Shown one piece after another: positions 943-64,000 of a DNA stretch of 64,000 bases. Source of the stretch: an uncultured Candidatus Binatia bacterium (GTDB lineage Bacteria > Desulfobacterota > Binatia > UBA9968 > JAJDTQ01); assembly GCA_965215605.1 (NCBI GenBank), contig OZ244070.1:320001-384000 (forward strand), written 5' to 3'. The notes under the pieces are model-generated. The model was not told where the DNA came from. It saw nothing but the letters and a program-made list of their open reading frames with translations, and searched no databases. Every line of letters starts with the position of its first letter. Positions within the stretch are counted from its first letter, which is position 1. The translations under genes and the position numbers were made by a program.

Positions 943-1968
943 CTACCGGCGCCCGCCGTTGCCGCCGGGACGCTGCTCTTCACGGTAGAGCTCCAGCGCT
1001 TCCAGCACCGGCCGGTCGTTCATGGAGAAGACCACCGCCTCCTCGTCGAAAGGGTTCTCGTGGCGGTGCCATTGCCAGTTGGGGATCATGAACGAGTCGC
1101 CCTTCTCCCACTCCAGGAAGCCCTCGCCAACCGCCGTGCGGCCGCGGCCGCGGAACACGTGGTAAAGCGCGGTGCTGGTGTGGCGGTGGGTGCCCGTGGC
1201 CCAGCCCGGTTTCAGCAGTTGCGCCTCACAGGACAGGGTCGCCATGGTATAGCCGCCGGTGACCGGATTGGTGTAGCGGACCAGGTGGCCGTCGAAGGGA
1301 TCGGCCTCGACGTCGGCGATGTTGTGGAGCGAGGCGTCGGTATCCTCCCAGCGGTAGCAGAACGGCAGGCCCCGGCCGGGGGATTCCGCGCGGGCCGGCG
1401 GGCGGGCGAAGCCGTAGCGCATCTGCGCGTCGCCGTCGGCGCGGGTGACACCCTGGGTGTCCTTGTCGTAGTTCTCGAAGAACAGCACGTTCAGCGCGTT
1501 GATGAGCGGGCCGTCGAGGCCGTCGAGCCAGACGATGGGCTCGCTCGATTCGTTGTGATGCTCGTGCCAGGTCCAGTTGGGGGTGAGGATCAGGTCGCCC
1601 TCGTGCATGGGGAAACGCTCCCCCTCCACCAGCGTGAAGGCGCCGCTCCCCTTCACCACGAAACGGATGGCGGCCATGTTGTGCCGGTGCGGCCGGGCGA
1701 TCTCGCCGGGGTTCACCACCGAGAAGGTGAAGAGCAACGTCCGGGAGGTGGCGCGGGTGGGGTTCTGCGGGTTCACCAGCCGTATGGCCCGGCGCTCCGC
1801 CAACTCGAGGCCGACGGATTCCCTGGCGTCCATGAGGCACGGGTGGACTTCCCGCCACTTCCACAGGTAGGGCGCCTCGTCCTGGTGTTCCGGCGTGCGG
1901 GTGTTCCAGAAGCCCGAGAGGTCGTGCTCGGCCAGCGAGTCATTGAGGTCCTTGATCTCCATCTTCAT
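943..1968 (-). CDS. Bicupin, gentisate 1,2-dioxygenase-like
   Basis: ERRAIRLVNP, PHRHNMAAIRF, DLILTPNWTWHEH, WLDGLD, YTNPVTGG, THRHTS and PNWQWHRH motifs. Confidence 0.88.
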   Translation of the reverse strand: MKMEIKDLNDSLAEHDLSGFWNTRTPEHQDEAPYLWKWREVHPCLMDARESVGLELAERRAIRLVNPQNPTRATSRTLLFTFSVVNPGEIARPHRHNMAAIRFVVKGSGAFTLVEGERFPMHEGDLILTPNWTWHEHHNESSEPIVWLDGLDGPLINALNVLFFENYDKDTQGVTRADGDAQMRYGFARPPARAESPGRGLPFCYRWEDTDASLHNIADVEADPFDGHLVRYTNPVTGGYTMATLSCEAQLLKPGWATGTHRHTSTALYHVFRGRGRTAVGEGFLEWEKGDSFMIPNWQWHRHENPFDEEAVVFSMNDRPVLEALELYREEQRPGGNGGRR

Positions 1969-2011
1969 GAGAGGTCCCTCGGGATGCTTGCAGGGGCCGG
2001 GGCGCCGGTAC

Positions 2012-2719
2012 CTATGGCAGCCGCGCCATGGCCGCGGCCATGCCGCCGAAATAGGCCCGGTGAAGGTCCATGGACTCCCGGGCGGTGCTCAGCACGCCTT
2101 CCTCGGCGCCTTCGGGCACGAACCGCTCGAAGATGTCCAGGAACATTTCGGAGTGCTTCTCGTCCGCGGCGCGATGGGCGGTGAAGTTGGGCATCTGGTC
2201 GTCGGTGAACTTGAGGTCCCGGCTCCAGCGTTCGTACAGCCGGCCGCAGTTGCCCCCGCCCAGGTCCCCCAGCAGGCGGTCGTCGTTGGTCCACTCCGCG
2301 ATGGTGGAGGCGGCCAGCGCCTCCTGCCACGGCTTGGTCCGAGCAATCCACCACCAGCCGTAGACGGCCGCCCGGGTGGCGGGCAGCGGCTCGGCGTCCA
2401 GCACTTCCTCCTCGCTGAGTCCTACTTCCCTGCCCTGCCGGAAGATCAGGTCCAGGTGGCCGCGGTCCGAATAGTCGTCCTCCACCAGTTCCTCGTACTC
2501 GTGGGACATGATGCGCTGCTTCACCAGGTGCACGGGACAGTTGGCGGCCACCTGGGGCCAGTAGTGCCGCCGCTGGCGGACGTAGATGCCGAGCTGCGAC
2601 AGGTAGAGCCGCGCGCGCTCCAGGCTGACGGGGGTTTCGTAGAACTGTCCCAACTCCGGAGACCGGAAATAGTCCCTGACGATCTCACCAAGCTCGTTGC
2701 GCCATTCCTTCGGGTTCAT
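2012..2719 (-). CDS. Heme-oxygenase-like (TenA/PqqC/CADD-type) iron-containing redox enzyme
   Basis: All-helical 235 aa protein with HEYEE...GH, EW and HRAADEKH ligand-like motifs. Confidence 0.65.
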   Translation of the reverse strand: MNPKEWRNELGEIVRDYFRSPELGQFYETPVSLERARLYLSQLGIYVRQRRHYWPQVAANCPVHLVKQRIMSHEYEELVEDDYSDRGHLDLIFRQGREVGLSEEEVLDAEPLPATRAAVYGWWWIARTKPWQEALAASTIAEWTNDDRLLGDLGGGNCGRLYERWSRDLKFTDDQMPNFTAHRAADEKHSEMFLDIFERFVPEGAEEGVLSTARESMDLHRAYFGGMAAAMARLP

Positions 2720-2750
2720 GACTCTTCTCCTTACGTGCTGGTTCAGGAAA

Positions 2751-3644
2751 TCAGTCCCGCGCCACGGCCAGCGCGTTCTTGAGCCGCGTGGCCTGCTCGC
2801 TGTTGAGGTCCTTGGTGGGCCACCTCGGGAAATCCACCACCGGGAGATCCCGCAGCTTGAGAGACTCCCGCAGGACCGAGCGGCCCGCGGCCCGCTGGAG
2901 GTCGCTGACGACCGCGGTGAATTCGATCACCCGCCGCTGCAGTTCAACCGCCTCCTCCAGCTTGCCCGTCGTGGTCGCGACCCACAGATTCACCAGCAGC
3001 TCGGGGATGGCCACCGTCAGCGGATGAATGGAGCCGGCGAGACCCCACAACACCCCCGGCATGATCAGCGTGGCGGAGCCGGAGAACACGGCGCAACTCG
3101 CGGGCAGCGCCCGCACGAAGGCGAGCTGCTGCTCCAGGGGAATGAACGACATCTTGATGCCGCAGGCCTCCGGGACTTCCGACACCAGCTTCGCGGTCCA
3201 CGGCGCGGTCATGCGATAACCGCTGTTCACCGCGTTGTTGTAGATGAACATCGGATACTGAATGGCCTCGTAGACCTTGACGTAGTGCTGCAGAACCTCG
3301 TCGTCGAGGTGGTCGAAGTAATACGGCGGCACCACGCCGACCACGTCCGCGCCCTTGTCCCTGGCGTCCCTGGCCAGATCGATGGTGGTGGGGGTGTCGG
3401 CCGTGCCCGCGTGAATCACCACCGGGATGCGGCCCGCCACCCGGTCGATGACGATCTTCGCGGTGCGCTTGCGCTCATCCGGCGTCATCGCCGGACCCTG
3501 GCCGAAGGTGCCGAGCACGAACAGGCCGTGCACCCCGGCTTCCACGTAGAAGTCCGTCAGCGCCAGCACCGCGTCCTCGTCCACCGCGCCGGTGCCGGTA
3601 AACGGCGTCGGCAACGGAATGTACATACCCTTCAAGCGTTCCAT
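2751..3644 (-). CDS. DHDPS/N-acetylneuraminate lyase family aldolase
   Basis: Start reassigned to MERLKGMYIPLPTPF. GTFGQG, IYNN and GIKMS (Schiff-base Lys) are present. Confidence 0.88.
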   Translation of the reverse strand: MERLKGMYIPLPTPFTGTGAVDEDAVLALTDFYVEAGVHGLFVLGTFGQGPAMTPDERKRTAKIVIDRVAGRIPVVIHAGTADTPTTIDLARDARDKGADVVGVVPPYYFDHLDDEVLQHYVKVYEAIQYPMFIYNNAVNSGYRMTAPWTAKLVSEVPEACGIKMSFIPLEQQLAFVRALPASCAVFSGSATLIMPGVLWGLAGSIHPLTVAIPELLVNLWVATTTGKLEEAVELQRRVIEFTAVVSDLQRAAGRSVLRESLKLRDLPVVDFPRWPTKDLNSEQATRLKNALAVARD

Positions 3645-3727
3645 AAGCTCGCTCCGTAGTATTGGTTTCAGTTTTCGGACCCACCACGGGTCATAGGGCA
3701 ACGGCGGATGGCTGTCAACGGACGCGG

Positions 3728-4399
3728 CTAGCGTTGCGCGGTGACCTCGATTTCGATGAGCTTGCCCTGGGCGGAATAGCCGTCCACGAACGACCACTCG
3801 ACGCGCCCCGGACGGGGCGCCACGGCGCGTTCGAACGCGTCCTTCAGCGCGGCCGGGTCTTCCGCCCGCTGGAGGAAGAACGACACCAGCACCGCCTGCT
3901 CCCAGGATACTCCGGCGTGTTCCAGGGACTCGCCGATGAGGCCGCAAACCTCCGTCACCTGCTCGGCAAGGTCGCCCGATGTGGAGGTGACGCCCGACAG
4001 GAAAACCAGGCCTTCGAGACCGAGATAGCGTAGCGGCACGATGGGCGGATCGTACTCCACCAGCTTCTTGCTGCCGCCGGAGCGCATGGCGATGAAGTCC
4101 AGCGAGACGGAGGCGCCGGAGTCGAGGTGACCGGGCGCGATGTAGCTCGAACTGGAGGAGCGCGCGCTCCCGCGCATGCGTTTGGAGCGGGCCTGACTGC
4201 CGAGGTTCCGGCTCTCCCGGTCCCGAGCCCACAGCCGCGTCCGCACCGTGTCGGCCAGGGACAGGCCCAGTGCGCCGATGCGTTCCTCGATGCGGTCGAG
4301 GATCCCGTCCATGCCCTGGTCGGCGGCAACGCCGTCGGCGCCCTCGCACGAGACCGCGACGAATTCGCGGCCGAGCCAGTCAAAGGATTTCATGCGCAT
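3728..4399 (-). CDS. Rid/YjgF-family protein, apparently two Rid-like domains
   Basis: VFLSGVTS...LAEQV...GKLIEIEVTA C-terminal Rid pattern; the N-terminal half has a similar repeat (TVRTRLW...SLDFIA). Confidence 0.65.
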   Translation of the reverse strand: MRMKSFDWLGREFVAVSCEGADGVAADQGMDGILDRIEERIGALGLSLADTVRTRLWARDRESRNLGSQARSKRMRGSARSSSSSYIAPGHLDSGASVSLDFIAMRSGGSKKLVEYDPPIVPLRYLGLEGLVFLSGVTSTSGDLAEQVTEVCGLIGESLEHAGVSWEQAVLVSFFLQRAEDPAALKDAFERAVAPRPGRVEWSFVDGYSAQGKLIEIEVTAQR

Positions 4400-5310
4400 G
4401 GGTTGGATCCCTCGTCATGCGGATCAACCGGACAAGACGTGGACGTCTCATCGCAACACACCGGAGCGTCGAAGAACGCCAGCGTCCGGATCTCGATGCT
4501 CTCCCGGCCCGGCGCGCCGGCTGGGCTCGTGGGGTCGTCGAAGGAGGAATGGGCGGTAAAGCGCGCCCTTCCGTCCCGGGCGGAGTCGAACGTCTTGAAG
4601 ACGATGGCCTCGTTCCGTGTCATGGCCGGGAAATAGAACCAGCGGTGGTCCGGCCCGTACTTGATCTGGTAGGTCTCGCCGATACGGCCGGGGTAGCTGC
4701 GCTGGGACGCGATCAGCTCCTCCGCTCGCAGCGAGCGGGCATCCGCGATGGCCAGCGGGTTGGTGCGCACCGGGTTGCGAGTGGGCTGCCACACCTGGAT
4801 GATGGCGAACCGGCCCTGGAGCAGCCGTTCCGCCTCGTCCGCCGGCAGGATGTCCCGGACCCGCTTGGGCCCGGACCAGTCGGTGTAGTCGTTGTGCACC
4901 GAGCGGTTGGGCTCCCGGACCTTCCGCTCCGCCCGGATGCCTTCGTCCTGGGCTCGGAGCGTGTGATCGAAGATGACCACCCGGGAAGCGCCGCTCTCGC
5001 GCTTCACCAGCGCCTCCACCTCGGGGTAGTAGACGGACCGGAGCTCGTCCTCGTCGTAGAAGTCCTTGACGCGGGTGTCGTGCCGAACGAACACGAAACC
5101 TTCGCGCTCCAGCGAGAACTCGCTCGCCATCGGACGGCCGTTGTGGATGGCGGCGCGGCGGGCCTCGTGCCTGCCGGTGCGCAACACCGGCGTGCTGTTG
5201 AGCACGGCGGTATGCGTCACCGGTTTCTCGCCGGTGTCCAACGCATAGTTCAGAACGGCTTCCACGGCATCCGGTGCGGTCTCGACCGACTCGAGTCCAC
5301 TCATGTGCAT
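4390..5310 (-). CDS. CmcJ/NvfI-family (2OG/Fe-like) oxidoreductase
   Basis: FSLEREGF, VVIFDHTLR, HNDYT, PLAIAD, HRWFYFPAM, HSSF and RESIEIR motifs; GGAGGT RBS upstream. Confidence 0.8.
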   Translation of the reverse strand: MHMSGLESVETAPDAVEAVLNYALDTGEKPVTHTAVLNSTPVLRTGRHEARRAAIHNGRPMASEFSLEREGFVFVRHDTRVKDFYDEDELRSVYYPEVEALVKRESGASRVVIFDHTLRAQDEGIRAERKVREPNRSVHNDYTDWSGPKRVRDILPADEAERLLQGRFAIIQVWQPTRNPVRTNPLAIADARSLRAEELIASQRSYPGRIGETYQIKYGPDHRWFYFPAMTRNEAIVFKTFDSARDGRARFTAHSSFDDPTSPAGAPGRESIEIRTLAFFDAPVCCDETSTSCPVDPHDEGSNPCA

Positions 5311-5343
5311 ACCTCCCGCGAATGACTTCTACTCTCACCGCGG

Positions 5344-5372
5344 ATGGTATCAGCCCAAGGCCTGTTCAACAA
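5344..5372 (-). promoter_or_regulatory. Putative sigma70 promoter for the leftward operon
   Basis: Minus strand reads TTGTTG-17 nt-TACCAT about 35 bp upstream of the 5310 start. Confidence 0.4.
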
Positions 5373-5426
5373 TAACGAACGGCGGATCGCGGCACGGACC
5401 GACGCCTTCCTGGCCGGCGCTGCGCA

Positions 5427-5456
5427 TTGACACGACCGCGGGCCATTGGCTAACGT
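5427..5456 (+). promoter_or_regulatory. Putative sigma70 promoter for the rightward operon
   Basis: TTGACA-18 nt-TAACGT upstream of 5514. Confidence 0.4.
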
Positions 5457-5513
5457 GCCAGTCAGGTTCTTCCCGCGCGACGGGTCCCGAAGATTCCCTG
5501 GAAGGAGCCCGAA

Positions 5514-6668
5514 ATGGGACGTGACTACAACGTCATATCGGCCGACGGCCATATCGACCTGAACCCCGACATCTGGCGCGGCCGGGTGGCAACATCCATG
5601 CGCGAGCGCGCGCCCAAACGGGTCAAAATGCCCAACGGGTCGGATGCGGTGGTGGTGGACGGCGGCAAGCCCAACACCATCGGGGTGACCCGGAGCGTGC
5701 GGGTGAACAAGGAGGACATGGCCAGGCAGGTGCCCACCTTCGAAACCTGCGCGGGCACCGGCCCGCCGGAACAGCGGCTGGAGGAACAGGCCAGAGACGG
5801 CATCGACGCGGAGGTGGTGTTCTCGCAGATCTCCTTCGTGCTGGAGCAGGCCAGGGACCGCGAACTCTATTGCGAACTGGTGCGGGCGTACAACGAGTTC
5901 CTGGCCGAGGAGTACATGGCGCCGGCCCCGGACCGCATCATCCCCATGGGCGTCATCCCCGTCAGCGGCGTCGACGACGCGGTGCGGGAGATGGAACACT
6001 GCGCCCGCCTGGGCCTCAAGGGCGTCAAGCTCGACAGGTTCCCGAGCGGCCGGGGCTACCCCACGGCCGAGGACGACCGTTTCTGGGCCGCCGCCCTGGA
6101 CCTCGGCGTCGCCCTCACCAACCACAACACCGGCAACATGGGCTCGGGCAAGGACGAGGCCGCGTTCACGTACCAGCGCAAACCCGGGCCCGACGTGCAC
6201 GTCAAGGAGCCCATGAACTACTTCTTCCGCTTCACCAACCCCGCCATGGTGGGCGCCGTGCAGATGGCCTTCGCCGGCGTGTGGGACCGCTTTCCGACGC
6301 TCAAGATGTACTGGGCCGAGACCATGATCGGCTGGTTCGAGTACGGCCTGTGGCAGATCGACGACCACTACCAGCGCTACATGCCCATGATCCACGAGTT
6401 CTGGGGGCTCCACTACCTGGAGAAGAAGCCTAGCGAGTACCTGACGGAGCACAACTACTGGGGCTTCCTGCACGACCCCATCGGCATCAAGCGGCGGGAG
6501 TGCATCGGCTACGACAAGCTCATGTGGGGAACGGACTTCGCCCACGCGGCCAGCGAGTACCCCAACTCAATCCCGATAATGGAGCAGGACTTCGAGGGAG
6601 TGCCCGCCAACGAGCGGCGGGCCATGCTGGTGGACAACTGTGTGAAGTATTTCGGGCTGGATGCATGA
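5514..6668 (+). CDS. Amidohydrolase_2-family protein
   Basis: ISADGH, DGIDAEVVF, AYNEFLAE, AETMIGW and MWGTDFAH motifs. Confidence 0.9.
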   Translation: MGRDYNVISADGHIDLNPDIWRGRVATSMRERAPKRVKMPNGSDAVVVDGGKPNTIGVTRSVRVNKEDMARQVPTFETCAGTGPPEQRLEEQARDGIDAEVVFSQISFVLEQARDRELYCELVRAYNEFLAEEYMAPAPDRIIPMGVIPVSGVDDAVREMEHCARLGLKGVKLDRFPSGRGYPTAEDDRFWAAALDLGVALTNHNTGNMGSGKDEAAFTYQRKPGPDVHVKEPMNYFFRFTNPAMVGAVQMAFAGVWDRFPTLKMYWAETMIGWFEYGLWQIDDHYQRYMPMIHEFWGLHYLEKKPSEYLTEHNYWGFLHDPIGIKRRECIGYDKLMWGTDFAHAASEYPNSIPIMEQDFEGVPANERRAMLVDNCVKYFGLDA

Positions 6669-54723: not shown

Positions 54724-54755
54724 GTAGGTCGGATTCCCGGAGCGTAATGTCGGCA
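54724..54755 (+). repeat. Degenerate GTAG-type REP-like element
   Basis: GTAGGTCGGATT...AGCGTAATGTCGGCA resembles GTAGGTCGGATT..GCGTAATCCGAC-type REPs. Confidence 0.35.
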
Positions 54756-54783
54756 ACGGCCCGGGGTGCCTTCCACCTGCGCC

Positions 54784-55101
54784 TCATCTGATTGCTTGAA
54801 CCTTCAGTTGTAACCCCTCGTGCTTCTGAAACTGGCCGATGATCTCACACAGAGCACGGGCTCGGGGGTTGCCTCCAGGGCCGAACATACGCATCAGGCT
54901 CTTCGGCGATTTGTCGGCAAGCCCACCGAGTTTCTGAAAGCCAATGATTGCGTTGATGCAGTCGCGCAAGACGGCCTTGCCGGTGTCAATGTCGCCGGCG
55001 AGCAAACATTCAATTCCTTCGGTGAACAGTGCCTCCCGAAAGGCTGGGTCCCGTTCAACACGCTCTCGGATGGCTTCTCGTGAATCTCGTGTCAGCACCA
55101 T
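54784..55101 (-). CDS. Addiction-module antidote / HTH antitoxin (HigA-like)
   Basis: MVLTRDSRE...RDPAFREAL..E.IEC.LAGD..TGK..LRD.INA.IGF...KSLMRMFGP.GNP; GGGAGG RBS. Confidence 0.8.
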   Translation of the reverse strand: MVLTRDSREAIRERVERDPAFREALFTEGIECLLAGDIDTGKAVLRDCINAIIGFQKLGGLADKSPKSLMRMFGPGGNPRARALCEIIGQFQKHEGLQLKVQAIR

Positions 55102-55168
55102 CGAATCCTCCCGTGATTTGCGCTTCATTGTACTCCCGCCAGAGTTCTTCGTACCTCTTGGACCAAAC

Positions 55169-55378
55169 TCACGAACGCCAGGCTTTCGCCATGACTGCCT
55201 TGTTGAGGAGGTCCAGCCCGTCCATTTTCGCAAGCACCCTGACTTCCTGCCGGCGGGCGTCGGCGGACACGACTTCACGTAACGCGGCCTCGATTATCTC
55301 TTCGACGGAGGGCAGCCCGAGCGTGCGACGCGCCTCCTGAATCAGACTCTCATCAATGTCAACGGTGATCCTGGGCAT
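55169..55378 (-). CDS. VapB-type antitoxin
   Basis: MPRITVDIDESLIQEARR.LG......I.AALRE..R pattern. Confidence 0.75.
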   Translation of the reverse strand: MPRITVDIDESLIQEARRTLGLPSVEEIIEAALREVVSADARRQEVRVLAKMDGLDLLNKAVMAKAWRS

Positions 55379-55668
55379 ACGGCCATTTTATATCATTCGA
55401 ACAATAATTTATCGATCAGGGCGCAAGTGTATCGTCGGATACGGCCCCGACCAATGTCGACACGGAATCCCTGCTTGAAGACCCTAGCTTCGGCGGCCGG
55501 TGGCGTAGTTCCGTTTCTCGCGACTGACCGGCCAAGATTCCACGAGACGAAACTTCGGATCGTCAAGGTTTTGTCATTCTGGGCTTTCCTTGGTAACTGC
55601 TTGTCCATCGTTTTACGTATGAAAACCAGCGGTCACCAAGAACTCACGGCAAGGAAGGATAGCCCGGA

Positions 55669-58600
55669 ATGACGGCACCCGACTCCCTGTTTCAGGACAC
55701 CATCTTCAGGGTCCTCGAAAACGCACCGCGCGGGCTGACCGTCGAACGCATTCGTACACAGTTGGCTGAGGCGGGAGCGACGATCGGCAAGGACGAAGTC
55801 GTACGGGCTCTGGCACACATGAACGAACGCCAACTGGTCCAGTTCGGTGCGGCGCGACGTTGGCATGTCCGCCGGCAAGGGAACAAAACTGCGGAAGATA
55901 CCGTCTCTGGCAGACCAGACGAATACTTGGTTGCAGTCCCTTGCCAAGCCACCGCTGGTGAGGCGGCCGTGGTGGGGCCGGACATGCAAGGCGGGCGCAT
56001 CGACGCCAGCATGGACCTCTTGCAACGCCTCCTGCCTTACTATCAGGATGCGTTACGACACGGTGACGGCGGCCAGCCTCAAGCCTTCGCAAACCAGTAC
56101 GGGGAGAATTTCGTGCTGCTGGAGCCGGACAAGCCCTGGTGGCCGAAGGTGGAGCGGGGTCGCACGTTGGTCGTTCCACTCTCGCGAATGCCGGACGGCG
56201 CGCGAACGCGTTTGGCGAGACAAAACACACGGCACCTCCTGTTGGGTTATCCACTACATGTGGTAGCGCCCCGTAACGGGGAGACCGACGCCTCCGTTCG
56301 TCCTGTTTCGGTCTTCCGTTGCCGTTACGATCAGACAGAGACGCATCTACTGATTCGCGTTCCGGTGACCAGACCCATAATCGTTCGAGACTGGCTGCGA
56401 GATCAAGTGAGGTACAGCGGGTGGAATGCTGCGCGTTTGTTGAGCTGGTTGCTGATCGAAGATGAGACCGCAGATCTGGACACCGAGGATGAAGCCGAGA
56501 GCCCGGAATTCCTGGAGATTCCCACTTTCGCCGCTCGGCTGGAATCCGCTGCCGGCAAGAGGTTGCACCAGAGGCTTCTTCCAGACGCAGTGGCCGGCCG
56601 CGTGCCTCGTGGTGGCGTGACCGGGTTCTATAACGGTCTGGCCTTATTCCCGGAGGCCATCGGGAACTACGTCCGCTCCGCCATCAGGGACTATGACCGG
56701 CTTTGCCAGGAACCCAGGGAACGGCTAGAGGGCAGTGCGATCGGCACGCTGTTCGGGACAGAGCGGCCTGCTTCCCCGGTTCCGGCCATCGTGCATCCGT
56801 TCCCCCTCGGCGAGGCCCAATTGTTGGCAGGGCGGGCCGCCCTATCCCAACCCCTGACCGTGATCACCGGCCCGCCGGGAACAGGCAAGTCGCAGGTCAT
56901 CGCTTCGATCATGCTCAGCGCCGCGGCCGCCGGACGTTCCGTACTGCTGGCGGCACGCCAGCATCGTGCCATCGACGCTGTGAAAGAGCGTATGGAGTCT
57001 CTGACCGAAGATCGGGTTCTGCTCGTTCGAGCCAACGAATCCCAAGGATTCGGAAAGTTCACGTTCGCTGACGGTCTGCGTGCCCTGCAGACCCGGGCGG
57101 GTGGCCCGGACGCAACTCAGCGTTTCGCCAGACGTTTAAGCCGTTTGGCGGAAGTTGATTCGCAGCGCTGGAATCTACTGGAGAGATGGCTGAGCCTCAA
57201 GTCTCTGGGGGAAACCGGCGCCCATCTGTTGGCAGACCTGGAACGGCTGGGAGCCGAACGGGCGAAGCTATCGGAGGCGGTGGGACCTACGCCCAACAAG
57301 TCCCGTTTTTTCGTCGGGCTTCTCCACACGCTGGCCCGCTTTCTCCGCTTTCCGGTCGGTAGGGATATTCCGCTCGGTGCCGAATTTCGTCAAGCGCGTT
57401 TCGACCGTGAGGTGATCCGGTTAGAGGCTACTCTGGGCGAGTTGGAAGATCGGATCCAAACGCTTCGGAAGGAGTTGGAGGGCCAGGCCGAGAACCCGGT
57501 TACTATAGGGGAGCAAGTTCAGACACTCAGCAGCGAAATCATGGAGCCGCTCCTCGACCACCTCGACGCCGTGTCTCAGGATGACAGGCAGGTGCTAGCG
57601 GCTATTGCCGGCGATGCCGCCATCATGGGACAGAGAGATATCGACAGCGATGCGTACCGGCTGATTTTGAAGTACATGCCGCTCTGGGCAGTGACGACCC
57701 TCGCTGCCGGCAGCCGGATACCGCTGGAGGCGGGCCTATTCGACTATGTCGTGTTCGACGAAGCCGGCGTGACGGACATCGCATCCGCCCTCCCTCTCCT
57801 GTTCAGGGCCAAATCGGCAGTCATCGTGGGCGATCCCATGCAGCTTGGCATGATCAGCAACCTCGACCCACGTGAGGAGCGCCTGATGCTGAGCCGGCAT
57901 GAGCTCTTGGGGCCCGGCATCGGGCGTTTCGCCCAAGGACAGACCGACCTCTTCCAGCTTGCGGCGTCAGCCATCCAAGGCGCACCATTTTTGTTGAATG
58001 AACACTACCGCTGTCATCCGGATATCGCCGCATACTTCAACGAGGCCTTCTATGGCCGCCGTTTGACCGTCCTGACGGAGGCGGACAGACTGCGCGTTCC
58101 CAAGGGCTTCAAGCCGGGCCTTCACTGGACCGACGTACAGGGCTCAGTCTCCACGGGCCGTGACATTGGGATGGGAGGCTCCGCGTATTCCGACGCGGAG
58201 GCGAAAGCCGTGGTGGATATGCTGAAGGCGTTGGAGGCGCTAGGTTTTGAAGGAACCGTGGGCGTCGTTACCTTCTTTGCGCCGCAGGCCAGGCACATCA
58301 ATGAACGCGCAAGCCGCGAGATCGGCGCCGACAAGCTCAATCGTCTGAACGTCAAGATATTCACTGCCAACAAGTTCCAGGGCGATGAACGCGACGTAAT
58401 GCTGTTGTCGCTCTGCCTGGCTCCAAACATGCCGGACGGCGCGCGGAACTTCCTGATGAGAGAGAAGCGCCTGCTAAACGTCGCGGTCAGCCGGGCGCGC
58501 GCGGTCTGCCACGTCTTCGGTAACAGGGGGTTCGCCGCATCCTGTGGCATTCCACACATTGAGACCCTGGTCCGCCGAGTGAATGAAGCCGCCGTGCCGC

Positions 58601-58944
58601 CCGACGCCAAGTTCGACGATCGCTTCGACAGCCCTTGGGAAAAGCGACTTTACGAAGCGCTGATCGAGCGTGGGGTCGACCCGATACCGCAGCATCCGGT
58701 TGCGGGGCGCTTCCTGGACTTGGCGGTAGTAGACGACACACGCTGGCCGCCTGTGCGCCTGGACATCGAAGTGGACGGTGTCACTTACCACACAGATGAC
58801 GACGGCAACCGCCTCCAGACGGATCTGTGGCGTGACCGTCAATTGCGGGGGCTGGGTTGGAAGGTCCTACGTTTCTGGGTCTACGAGTTGAGGGACGACA
58901 TGGAGGGGTGTCTTGAGCGAGTGGAACAAGCCATCAGAGACTGA
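55669..58944 (+). CDS. wHTH + SF1B (UPF1/DNA2-like) helicase + Vsr/DUF559-like nuclease
   Basis: GPPGTGKSQ, VFDEAG, VGDPMQL, LNEHYRCHP, GVVTFF, FQGDERD and LNVAVSRAR helicase motifs. C-terminal FDSPWE...PQHPV.GRFLDLA...IEVDG..YH...RD..L..LGWKVLRFW. Confidence 0.9.
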   Translation: MTAPDSLFQDTIFRVLENAPRGLTVERIRTQLAEAGATIGKDEVVRALAHMNERQLVQFGAARRWHVRRQGNKTAEDTVSGRPDEYLVAVPCQATAGEAAVVGPDMQGGRIDASMDLLQRLLPYYQDALRHGDGGQPQAFANQYGENFVLLEPDKPWWPKVERGRTLVVPLSRMPDGARTRLARQNTRHLLLGYPLHVVAPRNGETDASVRPVSVFRCRYDQTETHLLIRVPVTRPIIVRDWLRDQVRYSGWNAARLLSWLLIEDETADLDTEDEAESPEFLEIPTFAARLESAAGKRLHQRLLPDAVAGRVPRGGVTGFYNGLALFPEAIGNYVRSAIRDYDRLCQEPRERLEGSAIGTLFGTERPASPVPAIVHPFPLGEAQLLAGRAALSQPLTVITGPPGTGKSQVIASIMLSAAAAGRSVLLAARQHRAIDAVKERMESLTEDRVLLVRANESQGFGKFTFADGLRALQTRAGGPDATQRFARRLSRLAEVDSQRWNLLERWLSLKSLGETGAHLLADLERLGAERAKLSEAVGPTPNKSRFFVGLLHTLARFLRFPVGRDIPLGAEFRQARFDREVIRLEATLGELEDRIQTLRKELEGQAENPVTIGEQVQTLSSEIMEPLLDHLDAVSQDDRQVLAAIAGDAAIMGQRDIDSDAYRLILKYMPLWAVTTLAAGSRIPLEAGLFDYVVFDEAGVTDIASALPLLFRAKSAVIVGDPMQLGMISNLDPREERLMLSRHELLGPGIGRFAQGQTDLFQLAASAIQGAPFLLNEHYRCHPDIAAYFNEAFYGRRLTVLTEADRLRVPKGFKPGLHWTDVQGSVSTGRDIGMGGSAYSDAEAKAVVDMLKALEALGFEGTVGVVTFFAPQARHINERASREIGADKLNRLNVKIFTANKFQGDERDVMLLSLCLAPNMPDGARNFLMREKRLLNVAVSRARAVCHVFGNRGFAASCGIPHIETLVRRVNEAAVPPDAKFDDRFDSPWEKRLYEALIERGVDPIPQHPVAGRFLDLAVVDDTRWPPVRLDIEVDGVTYHTDDDGNRLQTDLWRDRQLRGLGWKVLRFWVYELRDDMEGCLERVEQAIRD

Positions 58945-60628
58945 TCGAGAGTCTTCCGAACTGCCCAGCGGATCGTCACGCCTGCGCAGCGAGTCACCTG
59001 AACCACCCCAAACGACGTCCGCGCCGGTCGGCTCGGCCCGCCAGCAGGCGAAGACCCGTCCGCGCCTGCTGCCGCTGGGGCTCGTCACGTTGATCGGTTT
59101 GGGCGCCGTGGTGTGGCTTGCGTTCGCCGTAGTGGAAAGCGTCATCAGCAGAACCGCAAAGAGGGCTGAGATCGAGGCGCTTTCCGCGCGACTCGGACCA
59201 TTGCGGGCTGAAGTGAGCAGGACCGAAGTCGCAAGGGACGAACTCCGCGCCGACCGCGACGTATTGCAACGGGAGGTGGACGGCCTGAGCGCTCGCCAGC
59301 AAGCGCTGGCTGGAGGTCTTGCAGACGCCCACGCGGTCATCGAACGGGGAGAACTGGCCCAACGTCGACAAGCCGAGTTGGACCGCGCCCTCACTGAAGA
59401 TCGGCGCAAGTTGGAAGAGCTGGAAAGGCGCCGCAATCAACTCGCCACCGAGGTCGCCTCCGTAGGGGAACGCAGAGACGACCTGAATACTGCCTTCAAC
59501 GCCGAAGCGGATCGTCTGAAGGTCATGCGCGGTGACCTCCAAACCCTTCGCGCCCAGCGACAGCGGACAGCGGACGAACGCCGCGCCGACCGCGATGCAT
59601 TGCAACGGGAGATGGACGGCCTGAGCGCTCGCCAGCAAGCGCTGGCTGGAGATCTTGCGGAGGCGCACGCGGTCATCGAACGGGCAGAGCTGGCCGAACG
59701 TCGACAGGCCGAGATGGACCGCGCCCTCACTGAGGATCGGCGCAAATTGGAAGAGCTGGAAAGGCGCCGCAATCAACTCGCCACCGAGGTCGCCTCCGTA
59801 GGGGAACGCAGGGACGACCTGAATATTGCCATCAACACCGAAACCGATCATCTCAAGGTCCTACGTAGCGACGTCCAGACCCTTCGCGCTGAGCGGCAAC
59901 GAGCCGAACAGGAGCGGGAGAAGGCCGAGAGTGAATTAGCGCGTGTGCGCACAGCTCTTCGCCATATCGAGGCCAAACGCGAAGCGGCACGTGTCCAGGA
60001 GCGAATGCTGGCGGGTCGCGTCCGCGAACTTGCGGCCGAGCAGTCGGGCCTCGAACCCGTGCAGAAACAGATTGCCGAGACGAAGCAGACACTCGCGAAC
60101 GTCCGCCAGGAGTTGGATGCGGTAAGCCTTCAGCTCGCGGAAACGCGCGCGGACGCGGCCCAGACTCGAACGTTGGCCGACCAGCTCCCCCTTCTGAAGG
60201 AGGAAACACAAGCCCTGGAAGCGCGCAGAAAGGAAGCCGTCCGTGACATCGCCGATCTGGAGGGGAAGCGGGCCGAGAGAATCCGCGTCGCTGGGGAGAT
60301 CAGTGTTGCACAGGGCAGGCGGAATGGGTTGTTGAAGGACGAAGCGGAACTCCGCGCACGGATCGACACTCTCGAAATGCGGCGAGACTCTCTCGGTGGG
60401 ACGATTGCGGAACTGGAGAAGGAACGGGTCGGACTTGTTGGTCAGATCAAGAGACTTCACGAAGACCGCAGGCTCGCGGACAACGCGCGTATGGACGCTC
60501 AGAGTGACTTGGCGAAGCTCCAGGATCAAAACGAGAAGGAACAGCAGCGCCTGACCGCCGTAAGGCGCGAACTCGGTACGGCCGGCCAACGGTTGCAGGC
60601 GATCCAACCTGACCTGGAAGCAGACTGA
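58913..60628 (+). CDS. Single-TM long coiled-coil protein
   Basis: Hydrophobic segment LLPLGLVTLIGLGAVVWLAFAVV followed by roughly 490 aa of heptad-rich E/R/L/A sequence; overlaps the helicase stop. Confidence 0.82.
   Translation: MSEWNKPSETDRESSELPSGSSRLRSESPEPPQTTSAPVGSARQQAKTRPRLLPLGLVTLIGLGAVVWLAFAVVESVISRTAKRAEIEALSARLGPLRAEVSRTEVARDELRADRDVLQREVDGLSARQQALAGGLADAHAVIERGELAQRRQAELDRALTEDRRKLEELERRRNQLATEVASVGERRDDLNTAFNAEADRLKVMRGDLQTLRAQRQRTADERRADRDALQREMDGLSARQQALAGDLAEAHAVIERAELAERRQAEMDRALTEDRRKLEELERRRNQLATEVASVGERRDDLNIAINTETDHLKVLRSDVQTLRAERQRAEQEREKAESELARVRTALRHIEAKREAARVQERMLAGRVRELAAEQSGLEPVQKQIAETKQTLANVRQELDAVSLQLAETRADAAQTRTLADQLPLLKEETQALEARRKEAVRDIADLEGKRAERIRVAGEISVAQGRRNGLLKDEAELRARIDTLEMRRDSLGGTIAELEKERVGLVGQIKRLHEDRRLADNARMDAQSDLAKLQDQNEKEQQRLTAVRRELGTAGQRLQAIQPDLEAD
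59245..59916 (+). repeat. 336-bp (112-codon) tandem duplication inside the coiled-coil gene
   Basis: CCGCGCCGACCGCGA... at 59245 and 59581; RADRD..QRE.DGLSARQQALAG...VASVGERRDDLN occurs twice. Confidence 0.9.
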
Positions 60629-60670
60629 ATGGCGAGCAGACGCGAACTTGCGTGGTGGGGGGAATAGACG

Positions 60671-62791
60671 ATGAATTGGGTCCTGTATCCTGAAGTGCTC
60701 TCGATCATGATCGCGGTCCTGGCCTTGGTTGGGGTGTTGGGACTCGCATTCATCTATGGAGTACACCATCGTCTGGCTTGGGCGCAGTTGCCGGCCGCGG
60801 CACGCGACGCGGAGTTGGCAACCCGTGTCATGCAGCGCGAGACCGACCTTCTGGACAAGGAGCAAAGGCTGGAGCGGCTCGACGAACAGATTCGCGACCG
60901 TGAAGCCAAGCTGCTGGAGCGCGACCAGTTGGAAGCTGAGGCGGCCTATTGGAAGTCTCAGATAGAGGCTGTGAAAGCCGAGTATGCCGGGCTCGATGCG
61001 TTGCGGACCGAAATCGAGGAAGTGCGAGAGTCGTATCGCCAGGAGATGGAGAGTCTGGCCGATGCGGAAAGACAAACCCGCGAGGCGAAGGGCGAGTGGG
61101 AGGATGCGTGCACACGTGTGGTCAAAGCCGAGCGGTGCCTGGCCGCGCTTGCCGGTAAGGCGGACCGGCTGCGCGAGATGCTCCAGGAGTTGGCGGAGAC
61201 GGAAGCCCGGCTCACGAAAACGAAGGCTAAGCACAAAGACGTGCTCACGGCATTGGAAGTGGGTCAAGACCGTCTCTCCCGCGTCGAGCGCGAGGTGGAA
61301 TCGCTTCACGCACGGCAGCAGAACCTGCTTTCTGAGCTTCGTGGCCACGAAGAGCGACTGGAAACTGTCAAGGCCGAACTGGCCGGTTTGGCTCCCGCGC
61401 GCCAAGAGTTGACCGTGGTCCTAGAGTCGTTGCACTCGGCCGAAGAAGACTTGAAGGACAAACGCGAATCACTCTCGCGTCTTACATCCGACGAAGCGTG
61501 GCTTCACGCTCAGATTGCGCGGTTGCGGGGCGAACTCGACGAAGCTGCCGCAAAGAACTACGAGGGCGACTCGGCTGAATCGCTCGCCGACCTTCTCGTG
61601 CCGCCCTCGTGTCTCGCGCGCACTGATGATGACGGTCACATCGCTGTCTTGCCGGGCGAGCGGCCCGCCGTACGGGAGTTGGACGCCCTACAACGGGTCC
61701 GGCAGCACCTAAAGGAATGCGGGCTTATCTTCGATGAACGCGTGACCAACGCTTTTCACACGAGTCTGAAGACCGCGGTGATTTCGCCACTGACGGTGCT
61801 GGCTGGCGTCAGCGGCACCGGCAAGAGCCAGTTGCCGCGCTTCTATGCGGACGCCATGGGGATGCATTTCCTGAAGATACCGGTCCAGCCCCGTTGGGAC
61901 GGCCCGCAGGATCTCTTCGGCTTCTACAACTACATCGAGAAGCGCTACAAGGCGACGGACCTCGCCCGGGCGCTGGTTCATCTGGACAACTACAACTGGC
62001 CCGATCAGGCAGAGAGGTTCCATGACCGCGTGCTGCTCGTGCTGTTGGATGAAATGAACCTCGCCCGCGTGGAGTACTATTTCTCCGAGTTCCTGAGTCG
62101 CCTTGAAGGACGCCCCCTTGACAGGGAGGCGGGCACCCCCGATATCCGGCGTCCGACGGAGATCGAGATCGACATCAGCCGAAAGGAGCGGTCTCAGGGT
62201 GTCTACGTCGGTCAGAACGTCCTGTTCGTAGGCACGATGAACGAGGACGAATCCACATTGTCCCTGTCGGAAAAGGTGTTGGACCGAGCCAACGTGCTGC
62301 GCTTTCCGAAACCAAAGGAGTTGAGATCGGATCTTCTCACGATGGACGAACGGTTTAAAGCCGCGGGTTATCTTCCCAGGAGACGATGGACGGAGGAGTG
62401 GCCTCGCCGCATCGGGGACATGGACAACGCCGCCCTTGACCGTGCGACCGAGACCGTGTCGGCCATCAACGCCATCATGGACGAAATGGGACGGCCGTTC
62501 GGTCACCGCATGGGACAGGCGATGCTTTACTACGTGGCAAACTACCCGTCTCAACCGGACCGAACCGACGAGCCGGAATTGATAAACAACGCGCTTGCCG
62601 ATCAGATCGAGTTGAGGTTGCTTCCGAGGCTGCGCGGGGTCGGAGTGGACGAGAATCGGAACTCCCTGTACCAACTGGCCGAAAAGGCGAGATCACTGGG
62701 TGACGAGGCGCTTGGGAACGCTATCGACAACGCCGTTCAACGTTCGCACGACACCGGCCTGTTCGCTTGGCGCGGTTTCACCAGGGAGTAG
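60671..62791 (+). CDS. TM + coiled-coil + McrB-like AAA+ NTPase (NxD variant)
   Basis: N-terminal hydrophobic helix and coiled coil, then LAGVSGTGKSQLP, VQPRWDGPQDLFGFYNY, LLDEMNLARVEYYFSEFLS, GTMNEDEST and SEKVLDRAN. Confidence 0.88.
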   Translation: MNWVLYPEVLSIMIAVLALVGVLGLAFIYGVHHRLAWAQLPAAARDAELATRVMQRETDLLDKEQRLERLDEQIRDREAKLLERDQLEAEAAYWKSQIEAVKAEYAGLDALRTEIEEVRESYRQEMESLADAERQTREAKGEWEDACTRVVKAERCLAALAGKADRLREMLQELAETEARLTKTKAKHKDVLTALEVGQDRLSRVEREVESLHARQQNLLSELRGHEERLETVKAELAGLAPARQELTVVLESLHSAEEDLKDKRESLSRLTSDEAWLHAQIARLRGELDEAAAKNYEGDSAESLADLLVPPSCLARTDDDGHIAVLPGERPAVRELDALQRVRQHLKECGLIFDERVTNAFHTSLKTAVISPLTVLAGVSGTGKSQLPRFYADAMGMHFLKIPVQPRWDGPQDLFGFYNYIEKRYKATDLARALVHLDNYNWPDQAERFHDRVLLVLLDEMNLARVEYYFSEFLSRLEGRPLDREAGTPDIRRPTEIEIDISRKERSQGVYVGQNVLFVGTMNEDESTLSLSEKVLDRANVLRFPKPKELRSDLLTMDERFKAAGYLPRRRWTEEWPRRIGDMDNAALDRATETVSAINAIMDEMGRPFGHRMGQAMLYYVANYPSQPDRTDEPELINNALADQIELRLLPRLRGVGVDENRNSLYQLAEKARSLGDEALGNAIDNAVQRSHDTGLFAWRGFTRE

Positions 62792-62794
62792 AGT

Positions 62795-64000
62795 GTGGCG
62801 ACGCCCGATCTGATTCTCCTGCGCGTCCCCTGGGGTCTGATCGGGCCTTCCCGAACGAGACTGGAAATTGCGGAGCCCGTACCCGAATCGGATACAGACG
62901 GTTTGGACCTGGACGGCTGCGTGTCTCCTCTCCTGTTCAGTCGCGACGATAAGCCGGTTCCGCTCAACGAAGACGATAGGGTCCTGGAGAGGTTCGTCGA
63001 ATTCCGGACACGTCTCGACGAACGGCAACGAGCCTGGGACATTCCGGTTCCACTGCACGGAAGCGAACTGCAGAGCCTTCGGTTCCATTCCTGGAAGCGG
63101 TCCAGGAAATTCACTTGGTCCGGAGGCGTCGATCGCCCCCCGACCGCCGGTTCGGGCGACGGGGAAGAGCAGAACCAGCCGGGAGCGCGCCTCCATCGTT
63201 TTCTGCGCACCATCCGCGCGCGTATGCAGGACTTCGAGACGGTTCTATCGGAAGGGCTGGAGCCGTGGGACCACGTCCCCGTCTTGTGGCTCGACCCGCA
63301 TGCCCCGCGTGACCCTACCATGGATGTCCTGGTGCGACATGCGCGTGAACACCGGACTGCCTGGGGTCATCTCGCCGAACACCCGCGACGCCTGCTCAAC
63401 CGCAGGCGCGAGTTGGTCACGCTACCCCGTGTAGAGGAACTGGACGTTCCGTGCATGCAGTGGTTGTCGCGCCAGCCGGGACAGACGCTTGCAGAACGGG
63501 CCGGCGGGCGCCAGCGCATCATGGCGCTCGCGCGCTACGAGAACCGGAACACCCTGGAGAACCGTGTCTTCCTGGACCTCATGGCGCGTAGCGTCGCTGC
63601 GGCACGCGACTACGACGCCATGAACAAGGGACGAGAGGGACGTACACGGCAACGGGGTAGCCTGCGGATCGAGTCCGTTCGGGCATACAGCCGAGAATGC
63701 CGTCGCATTCACCAGGAACTGGACATGCAGGGTGTTCTGCGCCCATCCGAACCGGTCCAACCCAATCATGTTCTGCTCGACGACATGCGCTATCGCAGTG
63801 TCTGGGCAGCGCGGAAGGAGATCATCCGGCGCGAACGGGCGATCGACGACCTTTGGCGTTGGCAACGCAGGGCCTGGACGGAGTTCTGCAAGGCAACGGT
63901 CGCCGTCAGCTTGGTCTGGCTTGACGGAGTCCAGCGTTTCTTCAGTGCACCGATGTTCGTAACAGACGAACACAGACGCGGATGCTTCCTGATTCACGAT
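62795..64000 (+). CDS. McrC-like DUF2357 protein, 3' end outside window
   Basis: Hand translation from GTG at 62795, open to the window end: HPRRLLNRRRELV.LPRVEELD..CMQWLSRQPG..LAERAG.RQRI....RYE.RNTLENRV...PNHVLLDDMRYRSVW. Confidence 0.82.
   Translation, partial: MATPDLILLRVPWGLIGPSRTRLEIAEPVPESDTDGLDLDGCVSPLLFSRDDKPVPLNEDDRVLERFVEFRTRLDERQRAWDIPVPLHGSELQSLRFHSWKRSRKFTWSGGVDRPPTAGSGDGEEQNQPGARLHRFLRTIRARMQDFETVLSEGLEPWDHVPVLWLDPHAPRDPTMDVLVRHAREHRTAWGHLAEHPRRLLNRRRELVTLPRVEELDVPCMQWLSRQPGQTLAERAGGRQRIMALARYENRNTLENRVFLDLMARSVAAARDYDAMNKGREGRTRQRGSLRIESVRAYSRECRRIHQELDMQGVLRPSEPVQPNHVLLDDMRYRSVWAARKEIIRRERAIDDLWRWQRRAWTEFCKATVAVSLVWLDGVQRFFSAPMFVTDEHRRGCFLIHD

Follow-up and report, generated by a model that had tools for sequence, protein, structure and literature searches.

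A probable Type III-B CoCoNuT operon in a Candidatus Binatia genome, with conserved predicted membrane anchors on CnuA and CnuB

What kind of McrBC-like system lies at the end of a 64,000-nt stretch of DNA from a Candidatus Binatia bacterium (hereafter, the window), and where in the cell would it act? From position 55669 to ~66972, five co-oriented genes form the operon cnuH-cnuA-cnuB-cnuC-cnuD, of which the last one and a half genes lie past the window. The contig was read on past the window end for the end of cnuC and for cnuD, and coordinates beyond 64000 are extrapolated window coordinates. Most likely, the locus is a Type III-B CoCoNuT, i.e., a member of the McrBC-derived NxD branch with a presumed role against phages or mobile elements, made up of five coupled genes on an acquired insertion of 12.5 kb. 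An earlier note, based on the letters of the window, had described it as a CoCoNuT/CoCoPAL-like variant. The family was recognized correctly, but most of the novelty claimed is gone, as Type III-B is an already described subtype. The system itself is known; new are the conserved predicted membrane anchors of CnuA and CnuB, which are undescribed in the main text of the paper that defines the subtype. The genes are the following.

55669-58944, forward strand: cnuH, 1091 amino acids
58913-60628, forward strand: cnuA, 571 amino acids, TTG start codon
60671-62791, forward strand: cnuB, 706 amino acids
62795-64432 (cut at the window end, 64000), forward strand: cnuC, 545 amino acids
64420-66972 (extrapolated), forward strand: cnuD, 850 amino acids, wholly beyond the window

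The start codons of these open reading frames (ORFs) were chosen by rule. Neighboring genes overlap or nearly touch: cnuH and cnuA overlap by 32 nt, 42 nt separate cnuA from cnuB and 3 nt cnuB from cnuC, and cnuC and cnuD overlap by 13 nt. This spacing suggests a single, translationally coupled operon. The sequence AGGAAGGA sits 8 nt upstream of the ATG of cnuH. A scan for sigma-70 promoters gave 0 sites, and a scan for terminators gave nothing notable.

Type III-B was described computationally (Bell, Sahakyan, Makarova, Wolf, Koonin, eLife 2024; PMC11090510, cited here for its main text and legends as Bell et al., 2024). As defined there, it combines a CnuH with a directly fused Vsr-like nuclease, a separate CnuA consisting of coiled coil only, a CnuB in which a coiled coil is joined to an NxD GTPase, a CnuC with an immunoglobulin (Ig)-like domain, a DUF2357 domain and an inactivated PD-(D/E)xK domain, and a separate CnuD with an Hsp70-like nucleotide-binding domain (NBD), a substrate-binding domain (SBD) and HEAT-like repeats. 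It lacks TerY-P and is mainly alphaproteobacterial (Bell et al., 2024). The locus in the window has the same five genes with the same domain architectures, and it shows no difference in gene content from that description; no TerY-P triad was found in the operon and the neighbors scanned. What differs is the host, since Binatia are not alphaproteobacterial, whereas the relatives of the locus mostly are.

CnuH combines two enzymatic modules.

Residues ~380-953 of CnuH, forward strand: UPF1-like superfamily 1 (SF1) helicase with an insertion of ~100 residues after Walker A
58639..58935 (residues 991-1089 of CnuH), forward strand: Vsr-like PD-(D/E)xK nuclease, matching Pfam MTES_1575 (E 8.8e-16) and DUF559 (E 2.9e-6)

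The helicase matches the Pfam profiles AAA_11 (E 1.6e-15; 345 residues over 247 profile positions) and AAA_12 (E 7e-26), and the best matches among PDB sequences are UPF1, SEN1, SMUBP-2 and DNA2. In an alignment of 40 CnuH sequences, Walker A from G401 to K407, D697 and E698 of Walker B, Q725 and R942 of the helicase are invariant, as are E991, Q1008, D1017, E1034, D1036, H1041 and R1055 of the nuclease. Given these invariant catalytic residues, both activities look intact. Thus, the gene for an SF1 helicase fused to a Vsr nuclease, as read earlier from the letters, is confirmed by the profile matches.

CnuB consists of a hydrophobic N-terminal helix, a coiled coil and an AAA+ NTPase.

60695..60769 (residues 9-33 of CnuB), forward strand: predicted membrane helix, Kyte-Doolittle (KD) mean 2.82
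61805..61828 (residues 379-386 of CnuB), forward strand: Walker A, GVSGTGKS, with G379, S381, G382, T383, G384 and K385 invariant in 37 sequences
62240..62251 (N524-E-D526-E527 of CnuB), forward strand: NxD(E) signature, with G521, T522, N524, D526 and E527 invariant in 37 sequences

The protein scores 24.2 bits with the Pfam profile AAA_5 (cut-off 22) and matches the PADLOC candidate-defense model PDC-M26A with an E value of 1.8e-40. When the full-length profile was compared with the PDB, the result was swamped by the coiled coils of myosin and SMC proteins, and the AAA+ part was therefore used alone. Its sole matches among PDB sequences were to E. coli McrB; these are weak (E 0.4-1.1) but exclusive. 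In this comparison, MNEDES of CnuB aligns with MNTADRS of McrB, which places NxD where McrB has NxxD. The motifs GxSGTGKS, LLDEMN and GTxNxDE are invariant in the alignment of 37 CnuB sequences. The coiled coil of ~300 residues shows a hydrophobic periodicity with a z-score of 5.7, vs. 0.1 in the AAA+ part, and the profile of residues 45-306 matches myosin and SMC rods (best E 1.2e-19).

The domains of CnuC follow from a structure model and an alignment.

CnuC, forward strand: Ig-like β-sandwich, residues 1-110; helical DUF2357 domain, residues ~120-375; PD-(D/E)xK-like domain without the Lys, residues 379-545

The match of CnuC itself to DUF2357 lies below the cut-off (E 0.0036), but 46 of 48 homologs match this family, with a best E value of 3.5e-12. 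Compared with PDB sequences, the CnuC profile gave only chance matches to T-cell receptors. The AlphaFold2 model, with a pLDDT (predicted local distance difference test) score of 90.9 and a predicted template modeling (pTM) score of 0.89, contains an N-terminal β-sandwich, a helical middle and a C-terminal α/β domain, and the first-ranked Foldseek matches are McrC chains of the McrBC complexes of Thermococcus gammatolerans and E. coli (6ut7_G, E 1.5e-5; 6hz4_M, E 5.4e-5; 6ut6_G, E 9.1e-4). At the motif columns of the putative nuclease domain, an acidic residue is found at the position of E392 in 47 of 48 sequences, while D402 is present in 28/48 and E418 in 39/48. Q, L, R and H are the residues that occur most often two columns past E418, and Lys is outside this top four. 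With the Lys of (D/E)xK missing, CnuC probably has no nuclease activity, which would leave CnuH as the sole evident nuclease of the system. The earlier note, which had taken both McrC and the helicase-Vsr protein as nucleases, thus appears to be right for the latter but not for CnuC.

CnuD was recognized by its fold. Searches by sequence against Pfam, NCBIfam, PADLOC and the PDB returned nothing. A Foldseek search with the AlphaFold2 model (pLDDT 91.2, pTM 0.72), however, returned full-length DnaK, BiP, Hsp110 and Ssb as top matches over 570-730 aligned columns, with a best E value of 2.5e-14 and a probability of 1.00. In the model, an Hsp70-like NBD and SBD are followed by an all-helical repeat domain at residues ~590-845. 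A direct comparison with DnaK by hhalign scored 24.3 over 323 co-linear columns, close to the range of 12.6-22.7 for 18 reversed, shuffled or unrelated controls. Among 1.84 billion representative sequences, the CnuD profile matched 1385 clusters at E ≤0.001; the 150 clusters listed consisted of stand-alone proteins that resemble one another in length, with no fused form among them.

CnuA, the remaining component, has no recognizable domain other than ~500 residues of coiled coil after an N-terminal helix.

59066..59134 (residues 52-74 of CnuA), forward strand: predicted membrane helix, KD 2.43, with KTRPR just before it
59236..59889, forward strand: 336-bp tandem duplication in the cnuA coiled coil; Tandem Repeats Finder reports a period of 336 (112 codons), 1.9 copies and 90% matches without indels

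Its profile matches are exclusively of the coiled-coil type (SMC, Rad50, JetC), and its hydrophobicity has a periodicity of 3.5 residues (z 4.3). CnuA varies from 406 to 1067 amino acids across loci, and the length of its coiled coil seems to change via tandem duplications such as the one found here. Sequence conservation is low, with a mean column identity of 18% and no invariant columns.

The association of these genes was found to be conserved. A survey with one genome per species yielded at least 528 confirmed loci, 80 of which were kept for analysis, their taxa being read from record titles. By tblastn, 58 of the 80 loci have cnuH, cnuB, cnuC and cnuD in this order; the remaining 22, many of which are short contigs, have H-B-C (8 loci), B-C (6), B-C-D (6), H-B (1) or B (1). 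cnuA was scored in only two of the 80 loci because it was masked as coiled coil. Nevertheless, an ORF occupies the same position between cnuH and cnuB in 67 of the 67 loci having matches to both, although two of the 67 ORFs picked are wrong ones. In all eight loci with H-B-C only, an ORF of 866-1004 amino acids with a CnuD-like N-terminal motif directly follows cnuC; judged by position and motif, CnuD is diverged rather than absent in these loci. They are found in Desulfobacterota-type bacteria, in Planctomycetota and in one Methylobacillus-titled genome, and they may represent a sub-clade with a longer CnuD.

Thus, most of what had been seen in the window by eye holds. The earlier note had listed four co-oriented, closely spaced or overlapping genes, which the ORFs and their spacing reproduce; its transmembrane (TM)-coiled coil protein is CnuA, its TM-coiled coil-AAA+ protein with GTMNEDE is CnuB, and its DUF2357-type ORF is CnuC, as supported by the homologs and the McrC fold. 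It had also asked for the gene order in other genomes, which proved to be conserved, and for the downstream contig, where cnuC continues into the PD-(D/E)xK-like domain and a separate Hsp70-like CnuD is present. Its proposal that a membrane helix stands where the reader domain of McrB usually sits, and that the partner protein is anchored as well, agrees with the features described next, which are conserved across the clade.

A hydrophobic helix was called in CnuB when a 19-residue window within the first 80 residues reached a KD mean of ≥1.8. The counts given here for helices and charges come from related sequences and thus overstate independence. By this criterion, 108 of the 120 CnuB proteins listed, the own protein included, have an N-terminal hydrophobic helix. 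Among the 12 others, eight begin in the coiled coil (seven short proteins of 432-561 amino acids and one of 1028 amino acids), two start within the helix, and the last two reach 1.59-1.68. All 63 CnuB ORFs derived from the loci have the helix. The tail preceding it has a mean length of seven residues with 0.02 Lys and Arg, and the 12 residues after it contain a mean of 2.46 Lys and Arg. The number of Lys and Arg is higher on the C-terminal flank in 108 of 108 proteins, and the net charge in 107 of 108. This excess indicates an N-out/C-in anchor, with the GTPase in the cytoplasm. The helix is followed by a juxtamembrane LPAAxR motif (CnuB residues 34-46, window 60770-60808), in which P41 is present in ≥90% of 37 sequences. 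The sequence of the helix, by contrast, drifts; the motif may be a contact site.

In CnuA, 61 of the 67 ORFs in the gap between cnuH and cnuB contain a hydrophobic helix that reaches a KD of 1.8. Here, the net charge of the 15-residue flank is higher on the N-terminal than on the C-terminal side in 60 of 66 loci, with three ties and three reversed cases. According to the positive-inside rule, CnuA may therefore be oriented N-in, with its coiled coil outside the cytoplasm, perhaps in the periplasm. These membrane helices are not mentioned in the main text and legends of PMC11090510, although its supplements may show them; in both versions of the paper, as far as they were covered, "membrane" and "transmembrane" are used only for FtsB/CoCoPALM, EssC, ShdA and a 4-TM protein. 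In related systems, a CnuB of the type II-like locus of a Klebsiella plasmid has no hydrophobic segment (maximal KD 0.78), and the III-C-like CnuB of pSYSX, discussed below, has one at the N terminus (KD 2.39).

The operon is located on a segment that is foreign to its surroundings.

~55383-67901, no strand: 12.5-kb insertion carrying cnuHABCD and an rpn-like remnant

The G+C content at third codon positions (GC3) of the five cnu genes is 0.69-0.74, vs. 0.886-0.938 in five flanking genes and 0.877 ± 0.044 in 30 background ORFs, in agreement with the deviant codon usage that the earlier note had sensed. In blastn comparisons with two syntenic loci of the same genus, similarity ends at 54652/54748, is inverted at 54776-55382 and resumes at 67902. 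All five cnu genes and rpn are absent from the syntenic site in nine of nine genomes of the genus. At these empty sites, no more than 0.1-3 kb separate the gene for a molybdenum (Mo)-cofactor dehydrogenase from subsequent genes that are found downstream of the operon here, i.e., those for glyoxalase (7 of 9), M24 peptidase (8), BNR (6) and aldo-keto reductase (4). No direct or inverted repeats were detected at the left junction in the window, and no tRNA gene lies within 20 kb. Judging from these comparisons, the operon is a horizontally acquired insertion. Within the genus, 5 of 28 genomes, this one among them, have the AAA+ part of CnuB, the other copies being at different chromosomal positions. 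Of the 80 loci, 51 are alphaproteobacterial, and the rest belong to Gammaproteobacteria, Desulfobacterota-type bacteria, Planctomycetota, Binatia and others; the closest locus is titled Candidatus Binatia. Copies are present on rhizobial plasmids, among them plasmids of R. leguminosarum and S. meliloti and the conjugative pRtrCIAT899b, where the genes are annotated, in order, as AAA domain-containing, hypothetical, hypothetical, DUF2357 and hypothetical.

How does the locus relate to other systems with similar parts? A CoCoNuT-like locus on plasmid pSYSX of Synechocystis PCC 6803 shares the NxD CnuB (GTMNEDE) with a hydrophobic segment and the DUF2357 CnuC, and it also has a P-loop protein, a last gene of 800 amino acids and, as here, an adjoining Rpn-family gene. 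It differs in gene order, in the absence of an annotated cnuA-like gene between the helicase and cnuB, and in having an effector of the phospholipase D family instead of a helicase-fused Vsr nuclease; with its phospholipase D gene, it appears to fit Type III-C as described by Bell et al. (2024). Canonical McrBC of E. coli and T. gammatolerans has in common with the operon an AAA+ NTPase with Walker A, Walker B and a sensor Asn, and a partner of the McrC fold. In contrast to canonical McrBC, the signature here is NxD rather than NxxD, a membrane helix and coiled coil replace the DNA-reader domain, the McrC-like Lys is missing, and three extra genes are present.

Two other envelope-associated systems show looser resemblances. 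Zorya (ZorAB with ZorC/ZorD) was reported to form a complex in the membrane that has a cytoplasmic coiled-coil tail of 70 nm and recruits a nuclease upon phage invasion (Nature 2024; PMC11946911). The likeness is restricted to a possible way of working, i.e., an inner-membrane component with a long coiled-coil tail and soluble nucleic-acid-binding or nuclease effectors near the membrane. There is no homology, as no Zor model of PADLOC matched any of the five proteins, and, compared with the published description of Zorya, the operon has neither an ion-driven 5:2 motor nor a peptidoglycan-binding domain, the energy source being an NTPase. ShdA of the Shield system, as presented by Bell et al. 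(2024), likewise combines one transmembrane helix plus a long coiled coil with a nucleic-acid enzyme. However, ShdA has its RmuC-like nuclease in the same chain, whereas here the chain ends in an McrB-type GTPase and the nuclease is located on a separate helicase.

How would such a system work? Our inference draws on McrBC and on Bell et al. (2024), to which the membrane tether is added here: the AAA+ ring of CnuB, presumably a hexamer as in McrB, would be suspended from the inner membrane by a coiled-coil stalk of ~335 residues in the N-out/C-in orientation. The ring would bind CnuC, in which the McrC scaffold is kept but the nuclease chemistry is not. CnuD, Hsp70-like with a degenerate ATPase, would supply target binding; on account of its degenerate ATPase motifs, Bell et al. 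(2024) propose RNA as its target. NTP hydrolysis by the CnuB-CnuC switch would then license CnuH, the sole evident effector, to degrade the nucleic acid of the invader near the membrane. The membrane tether would thus put the switch where phage genomes enter. CnuA, a second anchored coiled coil of very variable length and opposite predicted orientation, might pass on signals from across the membrane. That the membrane complex senses phage injection or pilus events, as had been proposed for this locus, is pure inference. A more elaborate version, which we regard as unlikely, is that Type III-B, and perhaps III-C, constitutes a trans-envelope device. In such a device, CnuA would be a type II membrane protein with its fast-evolving coiled coil of variable length in the periplasm, and it would detect envelope damage or a penetrating phage tail. 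A helix-helix contact in the membrane would activate the oppositely oriented CnuB ring, thereby licensing CnuD and CnuH at the site of genome entry. If true, this would be a descendant of McrBC that perceives infection outside the cytoplasm instead of reading modified bases.

The same system might have another geometry, in which both coiled coils are cytoplasmic, CnuA is bundled with the stalk of CnuB, and the helices just localize the complex. This arrangement is quite possible, although we would put it somewhat below an even chance. Contacts between coiled coils of Cnu proteins were proposed by Bell et al. (2024). The coiled coil of CnuA is rich in Arg, Glu, Ala and Leu and without Cys, like cytoplasmic SMC-type rods. 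Moreover, the part of CnuA after the helix measures 347-1031 residues, and the periplasm is narrower than such a coiled coil if it is extended. On the other hand, the flanking charges, more positive on the N-terminal side in CnuA and on the C-terminal side in CnuB, would place the C-terminal parts of the two proteins on opposite sides of the membrane. In addition, the coiled-coil lengths of CnuA and CnuB, the latter with a spacer of 235-611 residues (median 335) between helix and Walker A, do not co-vary (Pearson r -0.08, p 0.55, n = 63), which argues against an in-register pairing of the coiled coils along their length. Still further from membrane anchoring is the explanation that the hydrophobic N termini are artifacts of wrongly chosen starts, or signal peptides that are cleaved off to leave unanchored mature proteins. 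The rule-based choice of starts and the TTG start of cnuA leave some room for it. However, it is extremely improbable, since the helices are maintained as a feature while their sequence drifts, down to 38% overall identity, and since the start of cnuA overlaps the stop of cnuH by ~30 nt here and in most other loci. Furthermore, the uncharged stretches of the anchors comprise 19-29 residues (median 22.5), which exceeds the usual length of signal-peptide cores, and export with cleavage would be senseless for an AAA+ GTPase.

Other explanations concern the identity and the role of the system. CoCoPALM, named but not yet detailed in the main text of Bell et al. (2024), is characterized there by an FtsB-like fusion, neighbors of the signal-peptidase family and coiled coils on McrC. 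We found no follow-up paper on CoCoPALM in the literature searched. Like CoCoPALM, CnuB has a predicted transmembrane helix and a coiled coil ahead of an NxD McrB GTPase, and its N-terminal part superficially resembles this fusion. Yet the neighbors scanned include no gene of the signal-peptidase family, the model of CnuC has no long coiled coil, and the genes for CnuH-Vsr, CnuA and CnuD that define Type III-B are present. Moreover, the topology of FtsB is the reverse of the N-out/C-in orientation predicted for CnuB. We therefore regard it as very improbable that the locus belongs to CoCoPALM. A function outside immunity, e.g., as a membrane-associated machine for surveillance of RNA, DNA or ribosomes, or as an addiction module with which a mobile element turns the helicase-nuclease on the host, has more in its favor but is still distinctly unlikely. 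UPF1-like helicases and Hsp70-like proteins work in quality control (Bell et al., 2024), the operon stands alone among metabolic genes, and no phenotype is known. Against such a function speak the patchy distribution in the genus, the empty site in nine of nine relatives, the plasmid-borne copies, the match of CnuB to PDC-M26A, and the protection afforded by a relative: a seven-gene type II CoCoNuT-like locus was reported to protect P. aeruginosa against two RNA phages, PP7 and LeviOr01, and the DNA phage MPK7 (bioRxiv 10.64898/2026.04.06.716636). For cnuHABCD, a role in defense is presumed on these same grounds, i.e., mobility, patchiness, the PDC-M26A match and the protection by the type II relative. 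The statement of the earlier note that these systems lack experimental characterization therefore no longer applies to the type II-like locus reported in that preprint, but the literature searched still contained no experiment on any Type III-B CoCoNuT. Nor did it contain a paper on PDC-M26, PDC-S37 or ProA anti-phage.

This lack of experiments is one of several points that weigh against reading the locus as a membrane-anchored Type III-B CoCoNuT. The assignment to Type III-B was made by gene content and domain architecture and not by a phylogeny of the GTPase, and membrane insertion and topology are predicted from hydropathy and flanking-charge statistics. The operon is solitary among metabolic genes, with no surrounding defense island. 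Besides the helical insertion after Walker A, which has its counterpart here, Type III-B CnuH was reported to contain a Sul7s-like winged helix-turn-helix domain and an oligonucleotide/oligosaccharide-binding (OB) fold (Bell et al., 2024), but here the sole profile match at the N terminus is a weak one to FUR (residues 11-59, E 0.27), and the N-terminal 380 residues have no match among PDB sequences. Finally, an Arg is found three columns beyond the position of the missing Lys in 25 of 48 CnuC sequences, one of the columns being a gap in 33 of 48, and CnuC might thus have residual activity.

The surroundings of the insertion deserve separate mention. The genes neighboring the operon encode an amidohydrolase, a subunit of a Mo-cofactor dehydrogenase, an Rpn-like remnant, a glyoxalase and an M24 peptidase. 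The upstream Mo-cofactor-binding dehydrogenase subunit has 25 matches in the genome at E ≤1e-100, an unusually large family of paralogs, with similar numbers in relatives. The 0.6-kb segment at 54776-55382 is inverted relative to two genomes of the same genus, and contigs of related strains show a joint on opposite strands at 54748/55438. No inverted repeat was detected around the segment within the window. The segment contains an ORF for a VapB antitoxin (VapB_antitoxin, PF09957, E 1.9e-8; 55169-55378, reverse strand) without a recognizable toxin partner, and an adjoining ORF of 106 amino acids (54784-55104, reverse strand) without a family match; in the blastn comparison with two relatives, both ORFs could be aligned at the DNA level. 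The earlier note had interpreted this region as toxin-antitoxin debris. The VapB ORF does exist, but five of the nine relatives without the operon likewise have VapB at the syntenic site, which makes it a resident gene rather than island debris.

Just past cnuD, at ~67012-67842 on the reverse strand, lies a gene of the Rpn/YhgA-like family (Transposase_31). It looks internally shortened, as 266 residues of the query span 313 columns in the alignment with the homolog at the closest, Binatia-titled locus. Rpn was considered as a part of the system and rejected, since only one of 80 loci has a homolog next to the operon, although one is annotated beside the pSYSX system. On R. tropici pRtrCIAT899b (locus 1840-6481), the cnuH homolog is annotated with 733 amino acids and directly follows IS21 (istA/istB); it was probably cut at its 5' end by this element. 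Among public sequencing runs, six that are labeled as sponge metagenomes, from six studies, share ~40% of the words sampled from window 55300-64000, and in three of these runs, contigs that are mostly 90-99% identical span the whole operon; no RNA run was among those listed.

The CoCoNuTs, a large family related to McrBC, have hardly been tested, and the targeting of RNA via Hsp70-like and helicase-nuclease modules is still conjecture. The public labels of their proteins, such as "hypothetical", "AAA domain-containing" and "chromosome partitioning protein ParA", can be replaced by Cnu names. With oppositely biased predicted anchors on two of its five proteins, conserved among hundreds of diverged homologs, Type III-B would acquire a defined cellular location. 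The anchors alter the expectation of where and how this subtype acts, and they would provide a conceptual link to Zorya and Shield, in which membrane-anchored coiled coils couple events at the envelope to nucleases.

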